Positions 3,805 through 29,547 of a stretch of 64,000 bases of DNA are shown one piece after another (position 1 is the stretch's first letter; the number at the start of each line of letters is the position of its first letter). The position numbers and the translations under genes were made by a program. A model generated the notes under the pieces. It saw only the letters and a list, made by a program, of their open reading frames with translations, was not told the origin of the DNA and searched no databases. This DNA comes from Verrucomicrobiia bacterium (GTDB taxonomy: Bacteria; Verrucomicrobiota; Verrucomicrobiia; Limisphaerales; UBA11358): positions 1,718 to 65,717 of the forward strand of contig DASXED010000126.1 in the NCBI GenBank assembly GCA_036490295.1. Reading direction: 5' to 3'.

Positions 3805-4946
3805 GGCGCGTTGGTGGACGAGTTCGCGCTCTTGACGCTGACCTTCACGTTCGGCGCAAGCCGCAACTGCCCGTCCGTCACGACCGTTTCGCCGGCCTTC
3901 AACCCTTTTTCAACGACCGTTTCGTCGTCATACGAAATGCCGATTGTCACCGGGCGTTCTTCAACCACTTGAACGGCGGCGTTCGTCGGGTTTGATTTCA
4001 CGACATAAATGAACTGGTTGGTCTGCCCCGTTTGCACCGCCTGCGTCGGAACGACAATGGCATTCGTCAATTCCGAAAGCGTCAATTCCACCGTCACATA
4101 TTGTCCCGGCCACAACGCGCTGTTCTCATTCGGGAAAGTTCCGCGCAATTGGATCGTGCCGGTCGTTTCATCAACGCTGTTGTCAACGAAAGTCAGTTCA
4201 CCCTGCTCCGGCGGCCCATCCATGTTTTGAAAAGCCGCCGACACCTTCAGCGTCTTCGTGCGCATTTCCTTTTTGATTTCCGGCAGATATTGCTCCGGCA
4301 CGGCGAACTGGACATAAACCGGATGAATCTGGTTGATGGTCAGCAGCGCGTCGTCCGGCGCTTTGACGACATTGCCCACATAAGATTGCAGGCCGCCCGT
4401 CACGCCATCCACGGGCGAATCAATGTGGCAAAACTCCAGGTTCAACGTCGCGTTCGTGATGGCCGCCTGGTCCGCCGACACCGTGCCGAGCAAAGCGTCG
4501 AGGCTCGCCTTGTTCGTGTCCAGTTCATCCTGTGAAATCAATTTCTGATCGAACAATTTTTGCTCGCGCGCAAAATTGATTTTGGCGTATTCCAAATTTG
4601 CCCCGTCACGTTCCAAGTCCGCCTTTGCCTGGTCCAGCGCCGCCTGCGTCGGGCGCGGATCAATCGTGAACAGCAAGTCGCCCTTTTTGACTTCCTGCCC
4701 TTCCTTGAAATGCACTTCGCTGATCATGCCCTGGATTTGCGAATGAACCGTCACCGTCGAATACGCCATCACATGGCCGTCCGGCGGCGGATCAATCAGC
4801 ACCGGCACGTTGGTCGCGAAGGATTTTGCGACGAGCACCGGCACGCCGGAAGGCGCGCTGTTTTTTTTGTGCGAACAGCCGCCGGTCAAAATGGCCGCCG
4901 CCAGCGCGAGCGCAAAGAGAAGGAATGTTTTTTTCATGGCAATCAT
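3801..4946 (-). CDS. RND efflux periplasmic adaptor (membrane fusion protein), lipoprotein
   Basis: Lipobox 'LTGGCS', coiled-coil hairpin region and beta-barrel motifs of the HlyD/AcrA family. Overlaps the TetR stop and the RND start by 4 nt each. Confidence 0.9.
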   Translation of the reverse strand: MIAMKKTFLLFALALAAAILTGGCSHKKNSAPSGVPVLVAKSFATNVPVLIDPPPDGHVMAYSTVTVHSQIQGMISEVHFKEGQEVKKGDLLFTIDPRPTQAALDQAKADLERDGANLEYAKINFAREQKLFDQKLISQDELDTNKASLDALLGTVSADQAAITNATLNLEFCHIDSPVDGVTGGLQSYVGNVVKAPDDALLTINQIHPVYVQFAVPEQYLPEIKKEMRTKTLKVSAAFQNMDGPPEQGELTFVDNSVDETTGTIQLRGTFPNENSALWPGQYVTVELTLSELTNAIVVPTQAVQTGQTNQFIYVVKSNPTNAAVQVVEERPVTIGISYDDETVVEKGLKAGETVVTDGQLRLAPNVKVSVKSANSSTNAP

Positions 4947-8899: not shown

Positions 8900-9187
8900 T
8901 TAGTCCACGATTTTTGGAACGATGAAAAGTCCGCTGACCTGTTTGGGCGCGTTGCGCATGGCTTCTTCGTGCGTAAGCGACGGGCGGATTTCGTCGGCGC
9001 GCGTGACATTGACCATCGGCACGGCGTGCGCGGTCGGCTCGACGTTCGTCACGTCAAGCTCCTTCAACTTTTCGATGTAGCCGAGGATGTGGCCGAGTTG
9101 CGCGGCGAGTTTTTTTTCCTCGTCGGGCGTGAGCGCGATGCGTGCGAGATGCGCGACGTATTTGATGTCTAAATCACTTGCTGCCAT
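8900..9187 (-). CDS. gatC: Glu-tRNA(Gln)/Asp-tRNA(Asn) amidotransferase subunit C
   Basis: 'VAHLARIALTPDEEKKLAAQLGHILGYIEKLKELDV..VEPTAH' is typical of GatC. Start placed at the ATG at 9187 (MAASDLDIKYV). Confidence 0.9.
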   Translation of the reverse strand: MAASDLDIKYVAHLARIALTPDEEKKLAAQLGHILGYIEKLKELDVTNVEPTAHAVPMVNVTRADEIRPSLTHEEAMRNAPKQVSGLFIVPKIVD

Positions 9188-9194
9188 TCGCGGA

Positions 9195-9228
9195 GTTTCA
9201 AGTTTCAAGTTTCAAGTTTCAAGTTCAA
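9195..9228. repeat. Tandem heptamer repeat (GTTTCAA x4 plus a partial copy)
   Basis: Four perfect GTTTCAA copies at 9195-9222 followed by GTTCAA. On the gene strand these read TTGAAAC x4 and end 7 nt upstream of the gatC ATG. Confidence 0.9.
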
Positions 9229-17333: not shown

Positions 17334-17436
17334 GGCATGGTAATCCTCAAGTGAACTTGTTTCAGTGATGATTTTAGACCCGGTTTTCGGGAACAGTCTG
17401 TGGAAAGCGCCGGTTTGTCGGACAGTAAAACATCAC
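17334..17436 (+). promoter_or_regulatory. Conserved 5' leader of RRM-protein gene, copy A
   Basis: About 100 nt upstream of the ATG aligns along its length with 19082-19186. Shared blocks are GGCATGGT, TCAAGTGAAC, TTCAGTGATGATTT, CGGGAACAGTCTG and GGACAGTAAA(A)CATCAC-ATG. Confidence 0.55.
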
Positions 17437-17757
17437 ATGAGCAATAAATTATTCGTAGGAAATCTTTCCTTCAATACAACCGAGAACAGCCTGAACGACG
17501 CGTTCGCCGCGTTCGGCACGGTCACGGAAACCAACCTGATGATGGACCGGGAAACCGGCCGTCCGCGCGGTTTCGGATTCATCACCATGAGTTCCGCCGA
17601 GGAAGCCCAGAAAGCCATCGAAGGCATGAACGGCAAGGACATGGACGGTCGCGCACTCACAGTCAACGTCGCCAAGCCGCGTGAAGAACGCGCGCCCGGC
17701 GGTGGCGGTGGAGGTCGTCGTGAATACGGCGGCGGTGGCGGCGGTCGCCGTTATTGA
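17437..17757 (+). CDS. RRM-type RNA-binding protein with a Gly/Arg-rich tail
   Basis: RNP2 'LFVGNLSF', RNP1 'RGFGFITM', C-terminal 'GGGGGGRREYGGGGGGRRY'. Start placed at MSNKLF. Confidence 0.9.
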   Translation: MSNKLFVGNLSFNTTENSLNDAFAAFGTVTETNLMMDRETGRPRGFGFITMSSAEEAQKAIEGMNGKDMDGRALTVNVAKPREERAPGGGGGGRREYGGGGGGRRY

Positions 17758-19186: not shown

Positions 19187-19537
19187 ATGAGCAATAAATT
19201 GTTTGTCGGGAATCTATCCTTCGACACCACAGAAAACGACCTGCAGGACGCCTTTGCGGCGCACGGCACGGTCACGGAAACCAACCTGATGATGGACCGC
19301 ATGAGCGGCCGTCCCCGTGGATTCGGTTTCGTCACCATGAGCACGCCGGAAGAAGCTGAAAAAGCCATTCAAGCATTGAACGGCGCCCAGCTTGGCGGTC
19401 GCGCCCTCACGGTCAACATCGCGCGTCCGCGCGAAGATCGTCCGCCCGGCGGCGGCGGTGGCGGCAGCCGCGGACCTCGTCGTGAATTCGGCGGCGGCGG
19501 CAGCGGTGGCGGCGGCGGTCGTCGTGATCGCTATTAA
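19187..19537 (+). CDS. RRM-type RNA-binding protein with a Gly/Arg-rich tail (paralog)
   Basis: RNP2 'LFVGNLSF', RNP1 'RGFGFVTM', and a GGGGG/RR tail. Confidence 0.9.
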
Positions 19538-19763: not shown

Positions 19764-20864
19764 CTAATTTTTCGGCTGTTTCCAGTAAAAGCTCACAACT
19801 TCGACGTCGGTTGGCGAGTTGCGGAAGATGATGGCGACGAACTCGCGCTTGTAATCGCCGACTTGCGCGGTGACGTGGACTTCAAAGGTGCGGCTGTGCA
19901 CGTCGCAGAGACTGCCCAGGCTTGCCCGGGCTTGCGGCGGGACAAGGCCGTTCAACTGGCCGACAGAGCGGAACGGCGTGTCATCGTCGGTTCCATCCAC
20001 GCCGTCGGGCCCGGCGCGTTGCTGGACGATGCTGGCGGCGATCTGGGGATCCACGCCGGGAAGCAGTTGGAGCACGTTGGTGCCGGCGGTGTTGACATTG
20101 ATGCGCCCGGAGGAAATGGGCGTGAAGACATCCTTCAATCCGAACGGATAATCCGGCGGCTGGCCGGGAGAAGTTCCGAAGCCTAGCTTGTGTTGAAAGG
20201 TGGCGGGCGTGTGGTTCGCCGCGCTGCCGCCCCAGTAGATTTCCGGCTGGTCCGAAATTCCCCTGACCAGCAGCAATTCGGACAAGTCGTCAATCGGCGC
20301 GTTCTTGGCGTGATAAGGCGGATTCAATCCCTGATAATAATCGTTCTCCGCGCCGGCAAGGCGGGGCGCATCGTCGGCATCAATCCAGTCTTGGATTGAA
20401 TCGGACACGACGGAAATGTTATCCGCGTCCACACCCATGAGCGTGAGCGCCTGCTGGATTTCCGGCGTGTTGGCGGTGTTGATGTTTGCGAAGCGTTCGA
20501 GGTCAATGATTTTCCAGGAAACCGTGCCGTTTCCAATAGTGTAATTGTCCTGCGAAATTCCGGTCAGCACGCTGTTGCTTTCGCCCATGCTGCATTGCCC
20601 GCTGGCCCAAAACTGATTCAGCGAATCATAAGGCTCGTTTGGAATTGAGGCTGATTGCGCCAGAATCCAGCGTGTCAATTCCACGCCCGAACGGCCGAGC
20701 CAGAGCAATTGCTGGTCGGAATCCGCGTTTTGCGCGAGCTTGGTCTCGACTTTCATCGAATATGCGAAGCCCGCCGCCAGCATGGACAGCACCAAAATCG
20801 CGATCATCGCGATGATGAGCGCGATGCCGTCGCGGGAATTTTGGCGGGTGGAAAATTTCATCAT
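19764..20864 (-). CDS. gspK: Type II secretion minor pseudopilin GspK-like
   Basis: 'RDGIALIIAMIAILVLSMLAAGFAYSM' N-terminus, typical GspK size, C-terminal helix-hairpin-helix-like region. Last gene of the pseudopilin operon. Confidence 0.8.
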   Translation of the reverse strand: MMKFSTRQNSRDGIALIIAMIAILVLSMLAAGFAYSMKVETKLAQNADSDQQLLWLGRSGVELTRWILAQSASIPNEPYDSLNQFWASGQCSMGESNSVLTGISQDNYTIGNGTVSWKIIDLERFANINTANTPEIQQALTLMGVDADNISVVSDSIQDWIDADDAPRLAGAENDYYQGLNPPYHAKNAPIDDLSELLLVRGISDQPEIYWGGSAANHTPATFQHKLGFGTSPGQPPDYPFGLKDVFTPISSGRINVNTAGTNVLQLLPGVDPQIAASIVQQRAGPDGVDGTDDDTPFRSVGQLNGLVPPQARASLGSLCDVHSRTFEVHVTAQVGDYKREFVAIIFRNSPTDVEVVSFYWKQPKN

Positions 20865-21658
20865 TGGCCGGGCAGTTTTATCTGGTTAATCGGGCCACCA
20901 CGGTTCGCCCCCGGCATTTGCACCACTGACGGCAGCGTTTGCGAGGGCATTGAAACCACGCGCGTGACCGTCCGCACCGGGGCGGTGCCGCCAAAACTGT
21001 TGTTGTTGCCGCCGAGCGAAAGGCTGACGCGCACCATTGTCGGAATCGAATTCGTGTCGTCCCATTCATTGTCCCACGCCATTGCGTTCGTGTCCCAGCA
21101 CTCGACGACAAAGCTCTGCACGTTGCGCGCCAGCAGGAGCGGGGTTTGCTGCTCGTCCGCGTCCATGTCCATGAGGATCGGATTCTGGCGCAGCACCAAA
21201 TCTTTTTCCGAATCGGTCCCCGGCTCGACGCTGAACGTGACGCGCCGCACGTTGAAACCGCCGAATTTTCCGTTGCGGAGAAAATCATCCGGCAGCCGCG
21301 CGGTGAAACTTAACGACGGCAGGTCGCCGTTGGTGATGTCGAAAACGTAATACTGCATGGACGCCTGGAACGACTGGATGCACGTCAGCGAATCCTCGAT
21401 GGTGCGGATGGCGACGCGCTGGCGCTGCACCTGCGCGGCGGCTTCCTGCCCGACCCGCGCCGCGCGCATGATCATCAGCCACGTCGAGTAAATCGCCGCC
21501 ATCACGAGGCTGAAAACCGTGATGGCAATCAACACTTCAATCAGCGTGAAGGCGAGTCGTCGAGGGTCGAGGGCCGGGAGCCGAGAGCCGCCGCGCGCAA
21601 CGCGAAATGTTTTCCGCCCTCGACTCTCGGCTCTCGACTTTCGACAAAGAGTTTTCAT
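20861..21658 (-). CDS. Prepilin-type N-terminal methylation-domain protein, GspJ-like
   Basis: 'A|FTLIEVLIAITVFSLVMAAIYS' class III signal motif preceded by a 36-aa Arg-rich leader. The GspJ assignment rests on size and position. Confidence 0.7.
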   Translation of the reverse strand: MKTLCRKSRAESRGRKTFRVARGGSRLPALDPRRLAFTLIEVLIAITVFSLVMAAIYSTWLMIMRAARVGQEAAAQVQRQRVAIRTIEDSLTCIQSFQASMQYYVFDITNGDLPSLSFTARLPDDFLRNGKFGGFNVRRVTFSVEPGTDSEKDLVLRQNPILMDMDADEQQTPLLLARNVQSFVVECWDTNAMAWDNEWDDTNSIPTMVRVSLSLGGNNNSFGGTAPVRTVTRVVSMPSQTLPSVVQMPGANRGGPINQIKLPGQ

Positions 21659-22146
21659 CTTGCCACCGTTGCCCCTTCCAGGCTGCCCGCCGGCGACTGG
21701 GGCCGGTAAAACAAGACGCTCATTTTGGAAATGACGGCGGTATTGCGGTCCACTTCAAAATCCACCTGAAAAAGTTTGTTCGACTGCACTTCCGTGATGT
21801 CGCGCGTCCAGCTGTAGCCGCTGTAGGAATCGCCGAGCAGTTCGCCAAGGTCGCCGGATTCCGTGCCTTCGACGAGTTGATTGGTCAGCGAAAGTTCCGC
21901 CGCCACCAATCCCGCGTCCACCGTGGGACGCTGCAACCGGCGCGCGTTGTCAATGGATTGCGAAACCAGCGCCAGGATGGAAAACGACGCCGTGAAAAAA
22001 ATGACCACGGCGAACATGACTTCGATCAGCGTGAAGGCGCAGGCGCGTCGAGGGTCGAGGGTCGAGGGTCGAGAGAAATTGCGCGCCGCGCGAAATGTTT
22101 TCCGCCTTCGACTCCCGACTCTCGACTTTCGGCAAAGAATTTTCAT
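21655..22146 (-). CDS. Prepilin-type N-terminal methylation-domain protein, GspI-like
   Basis: 'A|FTLIEVMFAVVIFFTA' preceded by a 37-aa Arg-rich leader. Start at the ATG at 22146 (ATGA overlap with the upstream stop). No other in-frame start codon before FTLIE. Confidence 0.7.
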   Translation of the reverse strand: MKILCRKSRVGSRRRKTFRAARNFSRPSTLDPRRACAFTLIEVMFAVVIFFTASFSILALVSQSIDNARRLQRPTVDAGLVAAELSLTNQLVEGTESGDLGELLGDSYSGYSWTRDITEVQSNKLFQVDFEVDRNTAVISKMSVLFYRPQSPAGSLEGATVAR

Positions 22147-22706
22147 TTCATCGGACCGACGGATGCCAGGGCGGTGGTCACTTCGAGCGTGATTTTCCGC
22201 CACTGATCGCCGGAATGAAGCACCAGCGTCATTTCATCGCTCGTGCCGTTCGGAAAAAACCGCACGGGCGGCGCCTCGTCCGCGTCCTTGTATTCCACCA
22301 GATTGATGTCGAGCGCCTCGATGATGATGCTGTCGTCGAACTGCGCCGAATTCACCGGCTTTGAATTAATCCGGGTTGACGGCGCGGACGAATCCACGAC
22401 GCCGCTGAATTCAATCTGATGTGCCTGCGGGTGAAAAACCACCGTGGTCGTCTGGCCGTGCAAAATCGCCTGCGCGCGCGCGTGGCTGCAAATCTCCAGC
22501 GAGTCATTGACCGCCTTGCGCAGCGGTTCTTCTCGAAACGCGCTCAAAATGGATGGAACGCCCATGGCCGCGACGAGGCCGATGATGGCGGCGACCATCA
22601 TGATTTCAATGAGCGTGAAAGCGCTGGCGCGTCGAGGGCAGGAAAAATTTCGCGCGCGTGACTGCGTTCGACCCTCGACTTTCGACTCTCGACTGCTTCG
22701 CATCAT
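22143..22706 (-). CDS. Prepilin-type N-terminal methylation-domain protein, GspH/FimT-like
   Basis: 'A|FTLIEIMMVAAIIGLVAAMGVP' preceded by a 29-aa leader 'MMRSSRESKVEGRTQSRARNFSCPRRAS'. Overlaps the gspF stop. Confidence 0.7.
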   Translation of the reverse strand: MMRSSRESKVEGRTQSRARNFSCPRRASAFTLIEIMMVAAIIGLVAAMGVPSILSAFREEPLRKAVNDSLEICSHARAQAILHGQTTTVVFHPQAHQIEFSGVVDSSAPSTRINSKPVNSAQFDDSIIIEALDINLVEYKDADEAPPVRFFPNGTSDEMTLVLHSGDQWRKITLEVTTALASVGPMK

Positions 22707-23995
22707 TGTCCTCCCGCCGAACTGCCGATGCTCGAAACCATCGAGAACATCGCGCCCAGCACGGCCACCAGCAGGAAGCCGACCATCGCGGCAATGCCGA
22801 CAATCAGGATCGGCTCAATCGTGTTCATCAGCACGCGCAGGGCGATGTTCAATTCGTTTTCATAAGTCTGCGCCACGTTGTTCAGCGCGTCTGGCACGTT
22901 GCCGGTTTCCTCGCCGATTTTCACCAAATCTATCATGAGCCGGGGAAACACCTTGCTCGCCGCCAGCGGCTGCGCGAGCGATTTGCCGTCCGTCACCGCC
23001 TCGCGCGTCTTGGCCGTGGCTTCCTTGATGACGCGGTTGGGAATGACCTGCTCCGTGATTTTCAGCGCGGTGAGCACCGGCACGCCGTTTTGCAGCAGCG
23101 TGCAGAGCGTGCGCGCAAACTGCCCGTAAAGATTCAGGCACATGACCTTTCCAAAAATCGGAGCCTTCATTTTCCACACGTCAATTTTCCGCTTGCCCGT
23201 TTCCGTCGCCTGGAAACGCTTGAACAAAATCACCGCCACGATTGCGACCAGCGCCATCAGCCACCAATAATGCCGGAACGTGTTGCTGATGCCGATCAAC
23301 AGCATCGTCATCGCCGGCAGGTGGGTGAACCCGATGTCGCCGAAGAGCGACATGAATTTCGGCAGGATGAACGTCATGAAAAAAATCACCATGCCGATGC
23401 CCGCGCAAAACACGATGGCCGGATAAACCAGCGCGGATGTGAACTTCGCCTGCACCTGCGCGAATTTGTCAAAGTGATCTGCCATGCGCCGGAGCACGTC
23501 CACCAGCGCGCCGCTCTGCTCGCCCGCGCGCACCATGTTGACATACAAATCCGAAAACACGCGCGGCTGCTTGGCCATCGCGTCGGACAAACTCCTGCCC
23601 TCGGTCACTTCCTGCTTGAGTTCGCGGCTCACGTCCGACGGAATTCCCTTCGTCTCCAGATACGTCATGCTGTTGAGCGCCGTTGACAGCGGCATCCCGG
23701 CCTGGAGCAAATTCGCCAGTTGCTGCGTGAACGTCGCCAGCTCCTGCAACTTCGGCTTGCGCTTCTGCTGCATCTGCGCGCGCAACGTCGGCGGCAGAAA
23801 CGAAGCCAGGCTGAATTTTTGACCGTCGCGTTTTCCGGCGGCGATTGCCGCGCCGCCCTTGCTCGCGTCCACGGCGATTGGAAAAAGCCCGAGGCGCGTG
23901 ATTTGCGCCAGCGCCGCCGGACGGTCGGCCACTTCGAGGACGCCCTCGACCAGTTCGCCGCTGCGCCGGCGCGCTTTGTAGGAAAATTCCGCCAT
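22703..23995 (-). CDS. gspF: Type II secretion / type IV pilus platform protein (GspF/PilC family)
   Basis: 430 aa with duplicated GspF domains ('LATFTQQLANLLQAGMPLSTAL', 'QFARTLCTLLQNGVPVLTAL') and three TM segments. Confidence 0.9.
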   Translation of the reverse strand: MAEFSYKARRRSGELVEGVLEVADRPAALAQITRLGLFPIAVDASKGGAAIAAGKRDGQKFSLASFLPPTLRAQMQQKRKPKLQELATFTQQLANLLQAGMPLSTALNSMTYLETKGIPSDVSRELKQEVTEGRSLSDAMAKQPRVFSDLYVNMVRAGEQSGALVDVLRRMADHFDKFAQVQAKFTSALVYPAIVFCAGIGMVIFFMTFILPKFMSLFGDIGFTHLPAMTMLLIGISNTFRHYWWLMALVAIVAVILFKRFQATETGKRKIDVWKMKAPIFGKVMCLNLYGQFARTLCTLLQNGVPVLTALKITEQVIPNRVIKEATAKTREAVTDGKSLAQPLAASKVFPRLMIDLVKIGEETGNVPDALNNVAQTYENELNIALRVLMNTIEPILIVGIAAMVGFLLVAVLGAMFSMVSSIGSSAGGQ

Positions 23996-24180
23996 AACTT
24001 GATTATCATCTAAAACCGTCCGCCGGCAAAAGTTTCAATCAAGTGCGGTTCAAAGACAAACAGCCGGAACAATTTTCTTGCTCCGGCTGACGAGGCAACG
24101 CCACACCAACGTCTGGCCAGCCTTCAAAAGTATTCGTCCGTCCGTTTGACATCTCCTTGTTTTAAGGCAATGTGAGAACG

Positions 24181-25890: not shown

Positions 25891-26949
25891 TCATCTTTGC
25901 GGAATGATCCTGTCCGGATGCCGCGCGCGGCTGACCGCCGTGTCGTAGCTGATCTGGCATTTGCAATACAGGTCGTAAAGGCAATTGTCCATCAGCAGCA
26001 TTCCCTCCTTGCGCCCGGTCTGAATCGTGTTTTCCAAATGGTGAAGCTGGTTTTCCCGAATCTGGTTGCGGACGGCTCCGTTGGCGATCAGCAATTCATA
26101 GGCGAGAATCCGGCGCGACCTGTCCGCCGCCGGCAGCAAATCCTGCGAGATGATTCCCTGAAGCGCGTTGGCAAGTTGTAAAATAATCTGCCGCTGCGCG
26201 TTGCCGTCAAAAACGCCGATGATGCGCTCGACTGCGTGCGAGACGTTCGGCGAGTGCATCGTGGCGAGAACCAGATGGCCGGTTTCCGCCGCCGTCAACG
26301 CCGTGGAAATCGCCTCGTGATCGCGCATCTCGCCCACGACAATCACGTCGGGGTCCTGCCGCAAAACGTGGATGAGAGCGCGGTTGAACGAACGCACGTC
26401 CGTTAAAACTTCCTGCTGCACGACGATGGCGCGCTTGTTTTGGTGGACGAATTCAATCGGGTCTTCAATCGTGACGATTTTGCAGCGGCGCTCGCTGTTG
26501 ACGAGGTCAACGAGATAATTGAGCGTCGTGGTCTTGCCCGCGCCGGTCGGGCCGGTGATGAGGACGAGTCCATTCGGCTTGCGCGCGAGTTCCTCGATTT
26601 TTTTGGGAAGGCCAAGCTCGTCGCGCGTGGCGATTTTGTCGCCGCAAAAGCGGAAGCTCATTTCAGGATGCCCGTTGCGGCGGTAAAAAGTCATGCGGAC
26701 GCGCCCGGCCGCGCTGTGCAGCAGCGAAATGCAAAGCTCCCAATCCTGCTCGAATTTTTTCCTCTGCTGTTCGTTCAACAGGCTGTCCGTCATGGCCGTG
26801 ATGTCCTCGATGGTCAATGCGTCCTCATCCGCGATGATGATTTCTCCGTTGACGCGAAACGCGGGCGGAACGCCGGTCACGAGATGAAGGTCGGAGGCGT
26901 CAAAGTCATTGACGGCGGATAAAAGGCGGTCCAAAAGCGGCGTGCTCAT
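25891..26949 (-). CDS. PilT/PilU-family hexameric ATPase (352 aa)
   Basis: 'ASDLHLVTGVPPAFRVNG', Walker A 'GPTGAGKTT', 'IVTIEDPIEF', 'ALRQDPDVIVVGEMRD', 'TGHLVLATMHS'. Start at MSTPLLDRL (ATG at 26949; ATGA overlap with the TPR gene). The 445-aa track ORF is an N-terminal over-extension. Confidence 0.9.
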   Translation of the reverse strand: MSTPLLDRLLSAVNDFDASDLHLVTGVPPAFRVNGEIIIADEDALTIEDITAMTDSLLNEQQRKKFEQDWELCISLLHSAAGRVRMTFYRRNGHPEMSFRFCGDKIATRDELGLPKKIEELARKPNGLVLITGPTGAGKTTTLNYLVDLVNSERRCKIVTIEDPIEFVHQNKRAIVVQQEVLTDVRSFNRALIHVLRQDPDVIVVGEMRDHEAISTALTAAETGHLVLATMHSPNVSHAVERIIGVFDGNAQRQIILQLANALQGIISQDLLPAADRSRRILAYELLIANGAVRNQIRENQLHHLENTIQTGRKEGMLLMDNCLYDLYCKCQISYDTAVSRARHPDRIIPQR

Positions 26950-27725
26950 CGTTTGAAAAGTTGCCGCAACCAGTCGCGCGTGCGCGGCCAGAACCCGGCT
27001 TGGGAAAGCCGGACGAGCGCGAGGTCGGCTTCGCGGCAATTCCGGTTCAACTGCAACGCCTGTGTGAAAGAGGTCTCGGCGACGCTGACCAAACCGAGTG
27101 CCTGCTGGCATTGGCCGAGTTCGAGCCACAGCAGAAAATGGCCGGCGTTCCATTCGACGGCTTGTTGCAGCAATTTCAGCGCGAGCACAAATTGACTGTA
27201 ATAAAAACGGATGCGCGACGCCAGCCATGCCGTGAACCAGTCTTTTGGCGCGAGCAGCAGCGCTTTCTCAAAACAATAATCTGCGCGATGCTCTTTGCGC
27301 GCGAGCATCACGTCGCCGCGCGCGAGCCAGACGTAGGGCGTGTCGCCGCGCTCTTCAATCGAGGCGTCGGAAAATGCCAGCGCGCCCTGCAAGTCGCCGC
27401 TGCGCGCGAGGGCGACGGCTTTGGCGGCGAGCAATTCGGGATATTGCGGAAAGCGTTCCAGCGCCTTGTCCGCCCACAATTTTGCCTCGCGGAATTCTCC
27501 GAGTTCGACCAGCATCCGCACCTGCGCCGTCCACGCGGCGGCATTTTGCGGATTGTATTCCAGGACTTTCGAGTAAAAACGCAGCGCCTGCTCAAAGTCG
27601 CCGTTCTCAAACGCCGCGCGCGCCTCGCCGAAATAATAAGCCTCGTCCTTGGCCGGCAGTTTTTGTTCCTGCTGCCACTGGTCTTCGGACTCGCCGCCCA
27701 ATTCAAGATTTCCAAAACGGCTCAT
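26946..27725 (-). CDS. TPR-repeat protein
   Basis: Several TPR-like units ('AYYFGEARAAFENGDFEQALRFYSKVLEYNPQNAAAW...'). Start at MSRFGNLELGG (ATG at 27725; ATGA overlap with the upstream stop). Confidence 0.8.
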   Translation of the reverse strand: MSRFGNLELGGESEDQWQQEQKLPAKDEAYYFGEARAAFENGDFEQALRFYSKVLEYNPQNAAAWTAQVRMLVELGEFREAKLWADKALERFPQYPELLAAKAVALARSGDLQGALAFSDASIEERGDTPYVWLARGDVMLARKEHRADYCFEKALLLAPKDWFTAWLASRIRFYYSQFVLALKLLQQAVEWNAGHFLLWLELGQCQQALGLVSVAETSFTQALQLNRNCREADLALVRLSQAGFWPRTRDWLRQLFKR

Positions 27726-28609
27726 GGTAAAATTTGTTGCCGCCAGAACCAGTGTTTGAACGGTTTGCCGACAAATTGTTTTTCCGGAACATTTGCCATT
27801 TGCAGCATGGCGGATGAAATGTCCGCTTCGCCCACGTTCCAATTACCGCTTATGGCAATATTTGGCCAGATGAACCAGTGATTTTCCGGCACAAGCCAAT
27901 TTCCCGATGTCGGCATGTGCGGCAGAAGCGGCTGCGGAACGCCGTTCACGGTGAAACTATTCGTCGAAAATTCCACGCGGTCGCCGGCCATTGCCAGCAC
28001 CGGACCCAAGCCCAAACTGGTCCGGTTCAAAACGCCATTGCCTCTGTGGTTTGAAAAATAATATCCTGAAAGCCTGTAAGCGACCCGGTCGCCGCGTTTG
28101 ATGTCATGAGCCGGAACGAATTTTTCAACGATGACTGCATGGCCGTTCACGCGCAGAGGCAGCAGCCAGTGTGTCCGCAGCGGCGTATAAAGGAACAAGC
28201 CCAAAACCAACATCGCTCCGATTGTAAAAAGAATGCGGGATTGAAATGGTTCATGGTTCAGCCACGGGCTGCAATAATAAACCAGGCCGGTGACATGAAT
28301 CGAAAGCAAAAGTCCGAACGCGTAATTGCCAACTGGATAGCCGAGCCAGACAATGAAGCAAAGGAAAAGCAGCGCGCACGCGGCCAGCGCGGCCTTTCCG
28401 TAAAGTCGCGGGCCGCGAAGATAAACCGCAAGGCCGGGAACCAAAACGCCTCCGACGAGTCCGCCGACCGTGATTTCATTTGGAAGACGAATGCGATCCA
28501 GCGCAAGCCCGTGGCGCACCGCAGAGCCAAGATAAAAAATGCGGGCATACCATCGCGCGCGACGCGGATAGTAGGGCGAAGTCATTTTTTCGCTGGAGTT
28601 CAACGCCAT
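27722..28609 (-). CDS. Polytopic membrane protein with a C-terminal signal-peptidase-I-like (S26/S24 fold) domain, copy 1
   Basis: Four or five TM helices, then 'IKRGDRVAY...GPVLAMAGDRVEF..FTVNGVP...VPENHWFIWPN...VPEKQFVGKPF'. This follows the S26 sequence pattern, but I see no SM/K catalytic dyad. Confidence 0.5.
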   Translation of the reverse strand: MALNSSEKMTSPYYPRRARWYARIFYLGSAVRHGLALDRIRLPNEITVGGLVGGVLVPGLAVYLRGPRLYGKAALAACALLFLCFIVWLGYPVGNYAFGLLLSIHVTGLVYYCSPWLNHEPFQSRILFTIGAMLVLGLFLYTPLRTHWLLPLRVNGHAVIVEKFVPAHDIKRGDRVAYRLSGYYFSNHRGNGVLNRTSLGLGPVLAMAGDRVEFSTNSFTVNGVPQPLLPHMPTSGNWLVPENHWFIWPNIAISGNWNVGEADISSAMLQMANVPEKQFVGKPFKHWFWRQQILP

Positions 28610-28659
28610 TGGTCAATGTTGTAATGCGCCGCCAATCCAAGATTTCCAAAACGGTTCAT
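28600..28659 (-). pseudogene. Chimeric duplication-junction ORF (TPR-gene 5' end fused to DUF2997-gene 3' end)
   Basis: Translates to MNRFGNLGLAAHYNIDQWR*. The first 7 codons match the TPR start MSRFGNLELGG (27725 downward). The last codons match the end of the DUF2997 gene '..RYNIDQRH*' (29548-29588). The ATGA overlap with the upstream stop is retained. Confidence 0.65.
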
Positions 28660-29501
28660 GGTAAAATTTGTTTCCGAAAAAACCATCGTTTGAACGGGCG
28701 TCCGACAAATTCCTCGCGCGACACAATCGTCGGCACAATCGTCATTTGCTGGGTGACATCGCCTTGGGTTGCAAAGATTCCAAACGTTGCAAAGATTCCA
28801 AACCCTTCATGTCTATAATATCTGGAAAACTGCGCCCGCATGAGCCAGTGCTTTTCCGGCACGTCCACGGAATCCACATGGTCGCCGCCAAGCCCGATCA
28901 CGGGACCGAGAATAAACCCGGCATCCTTCACTTCATGGCCGCCGAAGCTGGCGGAACTTCTAAACGCCGCCCAATCGCCGAGCTTGAGCGAATCCGGCGT
29001 TGTCCTGACTGAAACAACTATCACGCGATCGCCCACGCGCAACGGCATCAGCCAGTGATTTTGAATTGTGCCGCGCAGTGGCGTGTAAATTGCCAGACCC
29101 AAAATCAGCATCGTTCCGACGGTAAAAAGAATCCGGTAACGAAACGGCTCATGGTTCAGCCACGGGCTGCAATAATAAACCAGACCCGTGGTGTGAATCG
29201 AAAGCATCAGGCCGAACGCAAGGTTCGCGGCGGGATAACCGAGCCATACGATGAAAATGGTCAACAGCAGCGCGCAACCGGCCATCGCCATCTTTCCCCA
29301 AAGTCGCGGCCCGCGAAGATAAACCGCCAGGCCGGGAATCAAAATGCCGCCAATAAGCCCGCCGATGGTAATTTCTTTTGGCAAACAAATGCGATCCAGC
29401 GCGAGCCGGTGGCGCACCGCGAGTCCCAAATAAAAAACGCGGCAATACCATCGCGCGCGGCGCGGATAGTAAGGCGAGTTAAATTTTTCGCTGGAGTTCA
29501 A
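28656..29501 (-). CDS. Polytopic membrane protein with a degenerate S26-like C-terminal domain, copy 2 (tandem paralog)
   Basis: The N-terminal roughly 150 aa are almost colinear with copy 1 ('SPYYPRRARWY..FYLG.AVRH.LALDRI.LP.EIT.GGL.GG.L.PGLAVYLRGPRL'). The C-terminal domain has diverged. The apparent start is TTG at 29501. Confidence 0.5.
   Translation of the reverse strand: MNSSEKFNSPYYPRRARWYCRVFYLGLAVRHRLALDRICLPKEITIGGLIGGILIPGLAVYLRGPRLWGKMAMAGCALLLTIFIVWLGYPAANLAFGLMLSIHTTGLVYYCSPWLNHEPFRYRILFTVGTMLILGLAIYTPLRGTIQNHWLMPLRVGDRVIVVSVRTTPDSLKLGDWAAFRSSASFGGHEVKDAGFILGPVIGLGGDHVDSVDVPEKHWLMRAQFSRYYRHEGFGIFATFGIFATQGDVTQQMTIVPTIVSREEFVGRPFKRWFFRKQILP
28768..28803. repeat. Perfect 18-bp tandem duplication inside paralog copy 2
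   Basis: GTTGCAAAGATTCCAAAC x2 (28768-28785 and 28786-28803). It is in frame and gives 'FGIFATFGIFAT'. Confidence 0.9.
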
Positions 29502-29547
29502 GCTTCAGCCTGTTTGTTTCGGACAAGCTGAAGCTTGGACTCCGGCT

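Follow-up and report, generated by a model that had tools for sequence, protein, structure and literature searches.

Heptamer-Repeat Palindromes in the Pseudopilin Leaders of a Verrucomicrobial gspF-H-I-J-K Operon Are Probably Tolerated Inserts

We analyzed a stretch of 64,000 nt (hereafter, the window) from a soil Verrucomicrobiia bacterium (Limisphaerales; UBA11358; assembly GCA_036490295.1, contig DASXED010000126.1, positions 1,718–65,717). Its gspF-H-I-J-K operon contains three consecutive genes for GspH-, GspI- and GspJ-like minor pseudopilins (H, I and J below), each of which has a long class III (prepilin) leader encoded by tandem heptamers and their complement. These leader repeats are probably dispersed heptamer-repeat palindromes, tolerated since prepilin peptidase removes the leader, rather than a dedicated signal or an RNA switch. 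As is established for this protein family in general, a class III leader remains on the cytoplasmic side and is taken off by prepilin peptidase.

Architecture of the Leaders

A short basic leader of about 5–10 amino acids (aa) is not what the three genes have. Counted with Ala(-1) and followed by FTLIE, their leaders comprise 29 (H), 37 (I) and 36 (J) aa; they are basic, with a net charge of +6, +12 and +10, respectively. An earlier sequence-only reading of this DNA had claimed leaders of 29–37 aa before A|FTLIE on three consecutive pseudopilins, and all three peptides do read as claimed. The leader segments are as follows.

22620–22706, minus strand: H leader segment, 29 codons, MMRSSRESKVEGRTQSRARNFSCPRRASA; 5' arm 22667–22694 (four heptamers), middle 22639–22666, 3' arm of one unit 22631–22638.
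22036–22146, minus strand: I leader segment, 37 codons; 5' arm 22105–22133, middle 22076–22104, 3' arm 22047–22075, which is CTCTCGAC followed by CCTCGAC x3.
21551–21658, minus strand: J leader segment, 36 codons; 5' arm 21618–21645, middle 21588–21617, 3' arm 21559–21587.

In this small palindromic element, tandem GTCGAGR heptamers are followed by a short G+C-rich middle and then by complementary YCTCGAC heptamers. The element is in frame, beginning a few codons after the start and ending before the Ala(-1)|Phe(+1) cleavage site. The H element appears to be a truncated copy that has lost most of its 3' arm; its leader is preceded by a GGGAGGA Shine-Dalgarno-like run 5–6 nt before the ATG. Tandem Repeats Finder identifies period-7 arrays at 21559–21590, 21619–21645, 22047–22073, 22109–22127 and 22667–22694. 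The motif TCGAGRGTCGAG, allowing at most one mismatch, has 11 matches in the 64 kb, every one of them within the three leaders, against a shuffle expectation of 0.31; none of 100 shuffles reached 11. These data bear out the proposal that the DNA is built of heptamers with a complementary second half. All of the complementary blocks quoted in support of that proposal are present as well, and only the position given for one of them, GTCGAGAG, has to be moved by one base, to 22068–22075. A Joint Genome Institute (JGI) contig (L001) that was assembled independently has the same sequence as the window throughout the 1,261 nt compared, with no copy-number variant, which means that the leaders of the window are not an assembly artefact.

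Translation of the Leaders

The leader survey covered every FTLIE-type site in 80 related loci and in the window; the related loci extend about 4 kb to each side. Among the 227 pseudopilin sites that have a start codon, this codon overlaps the upstream stop as ATGA in 181. The length distribution is bimodal: 154 leaders do not exceed 20 aa, and 66 measure 26–50 aa. The long leaders are open and in frame without exception (66/66), their start codon being at the upstream stop or a few bases from it, and the ATGA overlap is used by 50/66 long leaders as compared to 127/154 short ones. Another in-frame start 4–20 codons before Phe(+1) occurs in 18 of the 66. In the frame that is used, 66/66 long leaders are open, vs. 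40/66 and 38/66 in the other sense frames and 28–30/66 in the antisense frames. Since the other sense frames are open in about 60% of cases only, the reading frame must be under selection, and ribosomes therefore read through the repeat. We conclude from this comparison of sequences that the long leaders are very probably translated. That they are real, as had been proposed, is supported by both the open frames and the ATGA starts.

In the window, no in-frame ATG, GTG or TTG is present between the annotated ATG and FTLIE of I or J, and H has just an adjacent second ATG. The absence of an alternative in-frame start, which the sequence-only reading had noted for I and for the last ~13 leader codons of J and H, is thereby confirmed for I and J, the adjacent ATG of H being the sole extra. 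On the identical contig L001 (2935–3393 and 4001–4675), the JGI gene caller began H and J past FTLIE, a case in which leaders built from repeats mislead automatic start prediction. We also considered whether one such JGI protein (P0002, 100% identical, beginning after FTLIE) represents a frame-shifted, phase-off allele, and rejected this: the DNA is identical to that of the window and the gene call alone differs.

Occupancy and Repeat Families in Related Genomes

Leaders of 10–20 aa are found in about 70% of the orthologues. Long leaders are present in 23/73 GspH, 6/74 GspI and 36/77 GspJ genes, and the occupation of H, I and J all at once, as in the window, is unusual among the related loci. 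The GspJ homologues show one of two leader types, either of about 11 aa (e.g., MNFKKKSRRA|FTLIE) or of 30–41 aa. The peptides of the latter type are wholly unlike between lineages: SRVESR...STLDPRP, KVTSDKWQVTSD...SRVTRHP, FQISNFKF...LEIRNSKF, RSAECGxRS...FRIPRSAF, LRFAICDLRFA...IANRKSQI, and others. Each of these peptides is encoded by a tandem heptamer array and the reverse complement of that array, which comes after it.

A unit of seven is strongly over-represented in the related loci (688 kb). Period-7 arrays number 125 (61 in leaders and 64 elsewhere), as compared to 10 arrays with period 8 (1 in a leader, 9 elsewhere), 33 with period 9, a single one with period 10 and none with period 11. 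A generic hairpin finder (arms of at least 16 nt, 80% complementarity) run over all loci gave counts too noisy for a split between intergenic and coding DNA, so only the period-7 counts and the site-specific analyses are used here.

A fourth prepilin-type gene of the window, with its F codon near 40348 on the minus strand, encodes a repeat-free leader no longer than 24 aa. At least one class III leader in this genome is thus unoccupied.

Hairpin and Peptide after Insertion

The sequence-only reading regarded each leader as a potential mRNA structure. When the leader RNAs were folded and compared with 200 shuffles each, the J leader gave -61.9 kcal/mol (z = -3.69, 0/200 shuffles as good), the I leader -48.6 kcal/mol (z = -1.10, 26/200) and the H leader -37.4 kcal/mol (z = +0.44, 134/200). 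According to these z-scores, self-complementarity exceeds chance for J only: the proposal stands for J, is marginal for I, and for H the fold is no better than that of the shuffled controls. The J hairpin begins 14 nt past the start codon. A scan of the operon against Rfam 15 returned nothing at the gathering score (microRNA hairpin models reached 22–29 bits vs. gathering scores of 64–97), and no minus-strand terminator-like site found in a terminator scan coincides with any leader hairpin. We also considered whether the H copy is inverted with respect to the other two, as the H middle scores 57 against the reverse complement of I and 49 against its forward strand. We do not rely on this score, since the H middle is itself nearly palindromic.

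Similar heterogeneity is observed among the 66 long leaders. The lowest hairpin z-score among them is -8.2 and the highest +1.65; the median is -1.4, and 38% of these leaders score below -2. This looks like a mixture of fresh and decayed copies. For a closer comparison, 13 leaders of the family to which those of the window belong (12 GspJ leaders and the GspI leader of the window) were aligned. The alignment is gapless over 100 nt, and the leaders are consequently homologous in register. RNAalifold finds no consensus helix in these 13 leaders (-0.48 kcal/mol). If the 26-pair hairpin is named from the intact copies, 68.0% of the alignment cells are paired vs. 67.6% in column shuffles, a level that 200/500 shuffles also attained, and double changes are not in excess in the 13 leaders. 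The true register does pair more than slid registers do (32–48%). Such an excess is what inherited complementarity would produce, given that the structure was derived from sequences in the same alignment.

The peptide appears to be no better conserved. Divergence at the three codon positions is 0.38/0.40/0.44 in the leader vs. 0.20/0.11/0.38 in the first 100 mature codons, and the near-equal values for the leader indicate that its peptide changes at about the synonymous rate. The net charge of the 66 long leaders is always positive, from +1 to +12, with I (+12) and J (+10) of the window the most basic of them. Taken together, the alignments show that, after a copy has been acquired, conservation extends neither to its hairpin nor to its peptide sequence; what is kept in the leaders is an open frame and a net positive charge. 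A role of the leader as a special peptide or mRNA structure, as envisaged in the sequence-only reading, finds no support in these data, in which one of three hairpins beats its shuffles, covariation is absent and the codon positions diverge equally.

Repeats of the Same Class outside Pilin Leaders

Most of the non-leader arrays are located at one place, inside the gene for LarE (TIGR00268, 295 bits), which in many genomes stands ahead of gspF. An in-frame insert of 33–126 nt was present in each of the LarE genes examined (38/38), always at one fixed site, VRVRHHE|...|ARIEL. In L002–L081, this site is about 2.3–2.7 kb upstream of the GspJ match (e.g., 1272–1370 in L027). The LarE inserts comprise many unrelated heptamer families; a few have 8-nt units, and some are one-armed, such as (AAATCCG)n in L006, L031 and L069.

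An exact-pattern scan of metagenome contigs for (GTCGAGR)3 yielded at least 120 contigs of 37–73% G+C, mostly with single arrays. Two-armed GTCGAGR copies are found in intergenic DNA, at the 3' end of an open reading frame (ORF) just before ftsY, inside UbiD and in the leaders of two other prepilin genes. Intergenic copies exist in L043, L059, L047, L143, L184 and L194; the three copies of the window, and most of those in related loci, are within coding sequence. Ten host ORFs, picked for recognizable motifs, were all confirmed with Pfam (10/10): UbiD (three), UvrC, TPR-domain proteins (two), ABC ATPases (two), uracil-DNA glycosylase and SpoU methylase. In the three UbiD genes (L093, 2495–2571; L155; L174), the GTCGAGR/CTCGAC repeat occupies one and the same place, the linker between the UbiD_N and rift domains. 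Prepilin leaders hold 2 of the 122 (GTCGAGR)3 arrays among the matches listed, so the repeat class is not pilin-specific. In Limisphaerales and other metagenomic bacteria, repeats of like kind are found inside LarE, UbiD and UvrC and between genes, which speaks against a special leader or an mRNA structure with a role at the pseudopilin genes. At the protein level, a phmmer search with the 36-aa I leader against 1.84 billion representatives gave one match, to an unrelated repeat protein, and a protein search with a 51-aa idealized leader peptide gave no scoring match.

The window holds a second heptamer family, a perfect (TGAAACT)x4.6 array at 9194–9225 (minus-strand reading). It is directly upstream of a gatC-like ORF (ATG near 9187), in a 5' untranslated or promoter position, and has no complementary arm nearby.

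Turnover and Copying

The element families are exchanged between close relatives. The J leaders of L002, L007 and L014 belong to the GTCGAGA family and those of L013, L018, L022 and L027 to the GTGACAG family. Between these two groups, mature GspJ is 94% identical and the flanks are nearly identical, and the roughly 105 nt between ATGA(A/G) and GCYTTCACG are wholly different. Among gene pairs whose mature parts are 85–90% identical at the nucleotide level, the leaders are unrelated in 10/29 cases for H, 12/45 for J and 0/37 for I. Length variants differ by 21 nt, i.e., three units (L002 vs. L007; LarE of L006 and L069 vs. L031), as would be expected if products of slippage survive only when the reading frame is kept. 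One of the short H leaders derives from a long one by the internal loss of 60 nt.

Copying within an operon is indicated by the window itself. A gapless alignment of its I and J leaders, which begins at the ATG and takes in both arms, has 86/101 identical nt; the FTLIE codons are again similar, and the rest of the two genes is unrelated. Local alignment scores between leaders of one operon reach 63 for I/J of the window, 58 for I/J of L077, 51 for H/J of L080 and 40 for H/J of L038. In general, 10/53 within-genome site pairs exceed the 95th percentile of the between-genome null, vs. about 2.7 expected. The suggestion that the element was copied between the genes is thus upheld by the I/J identity and by the near-copies that recur in L077, L080 and L038. 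As I leaders are rarely occupied elsewhere, the I/J likeness in the window fits a short gene-conversion tract.

Some copies are chimeric, the 5' arm being of one family and the 3' arm of another. They are found in the J leader of L025 (about 4001–4150) and in the LarE inserts of L040 and L061, and they include an SRVESR-type arm together with ...RTPHSALR as well as GTGACG units that face CTCGAC units. Such elements suggest nested insertion or partial replacement. No target-site duplication could be established, either from short vs. long leaders of close relatives or at the LarE borders. The borders of the elements are sharp, ATGA..|..GCYTTCAC in leaders and GAR|YTG...YTG|GCC in LarE. Unrelated families stand at exactly the same borders in close relatives, which is not predicted by random insertion with neutral retention. 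Copying via the conserved FTLIE flank, a mechanism that targets existing hairpins, and very fast in-place slippage combined with templated correction from arm to arm are candidate explanations for this border-faithful exchange, for the chimeric copies and for the high occupancy of the gspH/gspJ leaders and the LarE site.

Explanation and Alternatives

We assume the following course of events. A heptamer-unit palindrome would have entered pseudopilin leader-coding DNA, and copies would have arisen in neighboring genes. The insert would be tolerated there because the whole leader presumably stays cytoplasmic and is cut off by prepilin peptidase; it would be harmless as long as the frame is kept, no stop codon appears and the peptide does not become acidic (no net negative charge). 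After insertion, the arms would decay, the peptide would drift, units would come and go three at a time, and copies would be deleted or replaced. The J copy of the window would be the most intact one, and the I copy would stem from J, or the reverse, by local gene conversion over the shared start-to-FTLIE segment. Any effect on expression of a hairpin placed after a coupled start would be a side effect and not the reason for the presence of the element.

Several points weigh against this explanation. The gspH/gspJ leaders (23/73 and 36/77) and the LarE site (38/38) are far denser in elements than the DNA between the genes of these loci. Such density is not what purely random insertion with neutral retention would predict, and it hints at targeting, at copying via the conserved FTLIE-coding flank or at some benefit. 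The net positive charge of all 66 long leaders implies that the peptide is under selection at least with respect to its composition. The strong J hairpin may affect gspJ translation by lowering or tightening expression; the comparative data give no sign that such an effect is selected. Furthermore, translation and cleavage of the leaders are both inferred from sequence.

It is possible, though doubtful, that the inserts belong to an undescribed class of self-propagating palindromes of tandem 7-nt units that home to, copy into or replace each other at fixed coding "landing pads". The gspH/gspJ class III leaders, one LarE loop and the UbiD interdomain linker could tentatively be named as such pads, with the process directed at hairpins or single-stranded DNA in place of random insertion and later decay. 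This would explain the unrelated families at the same borders with 94–97% identical flanks, the chimeric arms and the dense occupancy. An unlikely alternative in which the RNA itself matters is that the hairpins are functional mRNA elements, which throttle independent initiation or block RNA decay and in this way set the ratio of GspF to the low-abundance GspH, GspI and GspJ. It is favored by the stability of the J hairpin (z = -3.69), which begins at +14 of its cistron, by the ATGA-coupled junctions at which all three leaders are placed and by the enrichment of H and J leaders relative to nearby intergenic DNA; REP hairpins, moreover, can stabilize upstream mRNA in operons such as malEFG. Yet the I hairpin is marginal and the H hairpin absent, about 70% of the orthologous leaders do without the element, and close relatives differ in both its presence and its family. 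Within the homologous family there is neither covariation nor a consensus helix, many orthologous copies fold no better than shuffles, and like elements occur in the middle of LarE and UbiD, where initiation does not happen.

The remaining alternatives concern the peptide and its frame. It is quite improbable that the long Arg-rich peptide has a function of its own as an extended class III leader, tuning membrane insertion or the timing of cleavage by prepilin peptidase in the type IVb manner. Although the leaders are always in frame and always net positive, with those of the window the most basic, and leaders of roughly 13–30 aa undergo normal processing in type IVb prepilins such as TcpA and BfpA, the divergence of 0.38/0.40/0.44 is close to the mature synonymous rate of 0.38 and speaks against amino-acid selection. 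Unrelated peptides (SRVESR.., KVTSDKWQ.., FQISNFKF.., RSAECG..) are found where the mature proteins are 94% identical, and 10–20 aa suffice for most orthologues. We give very little credence to phase variation, in which a unit of ±7 nt would shift the frame and turn a minor pseudopilin off, with Neisseria opa CTCTT as the model. The unit length is no multiple of 3, the arrays are in the 5' coding region and unit numbers do change over evolution, the surviving variants differing by 21 nt (3 units). Against it, the arrays have just 2–4 units, many of them imperfect; no out-of-frame long leader is seen (0/66) in the consensus assemblies, two independent assemblies are identical, and like arrays reside in housekeeping LarE, UbiD and UvrC, where switching off would harm. 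Finally, it is extremely unlikely that the annotated starts are wrong and the repeat is an untranslated intercistronic element with a non-canonical start adjoining FTLIE. The later codons at which the JGI gene caller began H and J on the identical contig may be taken as a hint in that direction, but they lie past FTLIE and would delete the conserved cleavage motif. Ahead of FTLIE, I and J offer no in-frame ATG, GTG or TTG other than the annotated start, the used frame is open in 66/66 vs. about 60% for the other sense frames, and an ATGA-overlap start is as frequent in long (50/66) as in short (127/154) leaders.

Comparison with Known Systems

In behavior, the closest known elements are the Rickettsia palindromic elements (RPEs), small palindromic repeats that are found in frame in unrelated genes and are translated at structurally permissive places (PMC10969869). 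The inserts considered here are likewise in-frame palindromes in unrelated hosts, i.e., pseudopilin leaders, LarE, UbiD, UvrC and others. RPEs, in contrast, are about 100–150 bp long, have a defined family consensus, lack tandem heptamers and are known in Rickettsia only, whereas the present elements are of about 70–100 nt, are made of 7-nt units, occur in Verrucomicrobiota and other phyla, and are exchanged as unrelated families at one orthologous site. We do not claim membership of a described RPE family, since organism, length and unit structure differ.

In make-up, the closest known elements are heptameric simple sequence repeats. Vioque is said to have reported in 1997 that arrays of the short tandemly repeated repetitive (STRR) type also lie inside the RNase P RNA gene. 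The likeness consists in tandem 7-nt units that are over-represented vs. other unit lengths (125 period-7 arrays in the present loci). The heptameric repeats described earlier (cyanobacterial STRR, Xanthomonas GGGAATC and Beggiatoaceae TAACTGA) are over-represented and sometimes form inverted pairs able to fold into stem-loops; their position is conserved, and their length and sequence vary between close relatives (PMC4692102; PMC4853749). Those repeats are intergenic or in an RNA gene, whereas the elements here are read by the ribosome, so that only steps of three units (21 nt) survive; the phylum and the unit sequences differ as well.

Repetitive extragenic palindromic (REP) elements, which are linked to RAYT transposases, and the related REPIN and bacterial interspersed mosaic element (BIME) arrangements share with our elements the character of short dispersed palindromes, hairpins in operon transcripts and several families per genome. 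The window copies differ in being intragenic, and inspection of the sequence shows neither GTAG nor CGTC at their arm ends. REP elements are described as extragenic and mostly provided with a terminal GTAG or CGTC tag (PMC3733652).

Two further systems resemble the present one in the place of the repeat or in the length of the leader. As in Neisseria opa, a tandem repeat whose unit is no multiple of 3 is located in DNA for a cleaved N-terminal signal. The CTCTT arrays of opa are long, vary within populations, act as on/off switches and lie in the signal-peptide coding region; by contrast, the arrays here consist of 2–4 units that face a complementary arm, and no allele is out of frame. Type IVb prepilins (TcpA, BfpA, CofA) have class III leaders much longer than the usual 5–10 aa that are compatible with prepilin peptidase. 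Their leaders are a conserved trait of major pilins, whereas those described here are sporadic, unconserved, repeat-derived and attached to minor pseudopilins of the type II secretion system. No description of heptamer palindromes in Verrucomicrobia or in prepilin leaders was found in the literature searched.

The findings may have consequences beyond this operon. The class III leader apparently works when it is stretched to 30–50 residues of near-arbitrary basic sequence, which would point to a wide substrate tolerance of prepilin peptidase and calls for caution in reading a long leader as a type IVb-like trait. For annotation, leaders built from repeats explain why gene callers disagree on starts, one of them having removed FTLIE. 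Verrucomicrobiota joins the few lineages known for abundant repeats of heptamer units, with the difference that the repeats here are inside reading frames. At the same codon positions, unrelated families replace one another rapidly and with fidelity to the site.

The Operon and Other Features of the Window

The operon is on the minus strand in the order F-H-I-J-K, which recurs in the related loci, and every junction in it is a 4-nt ATGA overlap in which the start codon lies over the preceding stop. Its features are as follows.

24002–24029, minus strand: candidate sigma-70-like promoter, TTGCCG-16-GATAAT, 9/12 matches, based on consensus match alone; just upstream of gspF.
22703–23995, minus strand: gspF, inner-membrane platform protein (PF00482, 8e-59; TIGR02120, 3e-104); first gene of the operon, its stop overlapping the start of the GspH-like gene.
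22143–22706, minus strand: GspH-like minor pseudopilin, 187 aa (PF07963; PF12019; TIGR01708, 1e-12, below the curated cut-off).
21655–22146, minus strand: GspI-like minor pseudopilin, 163 aa (TIGR01707, 2e-7; PF07963, 6e-4; both below the curated cut-offs).
20861–21658, minus strand: GspJ-like minor pseudopilin, 265 aa (PF07963, 1e-7; TIGR01711, 5e-8, below the cut-off).
19764–20864, minus strand: gspK, last gene of the operon (NF037980, 1e-42, above the cut-off); ATGA overlap with J, no heptamer element.

Transcription of F-H-I-J-K likely begins at the promoter match upstream of gspF. The identities of GspF and GspK are firm. The top family matches (Pfam/NCBIfam) of H, I and J are GspH, GspI and GspJ, respectively, with TIGR01708 on H at 48 bits vs. 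a cut-off of 80, TIGR01707 on I at 31 vs. 44 and TIGR01711 on J at 33 vs. 65. PF12019 (GspH) passes on H (23.8 vs. 21). The GspI assignment is made from the best family match together with gene order. Pfam and NCBIfam place the N-methyl/prepilin motif at residues 25–48 (H), 33–50 (I) and 33–57 (J); PF07963 and TIGR02532 are above their cut-offs for H and J, and I scores 19.7 bits on PF07963 vs. a cut-off of 21.2. FTLIE followed by a hydrophobic stretch is found in H, I and J alike, including the Glu at +5 of the N-methylation motif.

The residue at -1 is Ala and not the canonical Gly in H, I and J (window positions 21553, 22038 and 22622) as well as at 40348. Ala is also found at -1 in nearly all of the 120 GspJ homologues listed, and it is a clade trait that is not particular to long leaders. 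The GspJ homologues number 1,545, and PF11612 (T2SSJ) is precomputed on many of them. The closest database proteins and the 80 related loci come from metagenome-assembled genomes of Limisphaerales (Verrucomicrobia subdivision 3).

Several other features of the window were observed. Two small RNA recognition motif (RRM)-type RNA-binding proteins with Gly/Arg-rich tails are encoded in the flanking region at 17365–17757 and 19187–19537, one of them directly downstream of gspK on the opposite strand. A PilT-family ATPase ORF at 25891–27228 has about 98 extra Arg-rich residues ahead of the part that matches TIGR01420; the ORF is probably over-long, with the true start near MSTPLLDRLL. Adjacent paralogous membrane proteins with a common N-terminus, SPYYPRRARWY, are encoded at 27722–28609 and 28656–29501, and the second of them contains an in-frame perfect 18-nt tandem duplication, GTTGCAAAGATTCCAAAC x2, at 28768–28803. 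A hairpin at 29490–29546 in the gap between two minus-strand genes has 24-nt arms, a 9-nt loop and an AAGCTT core, with no T-run after it.

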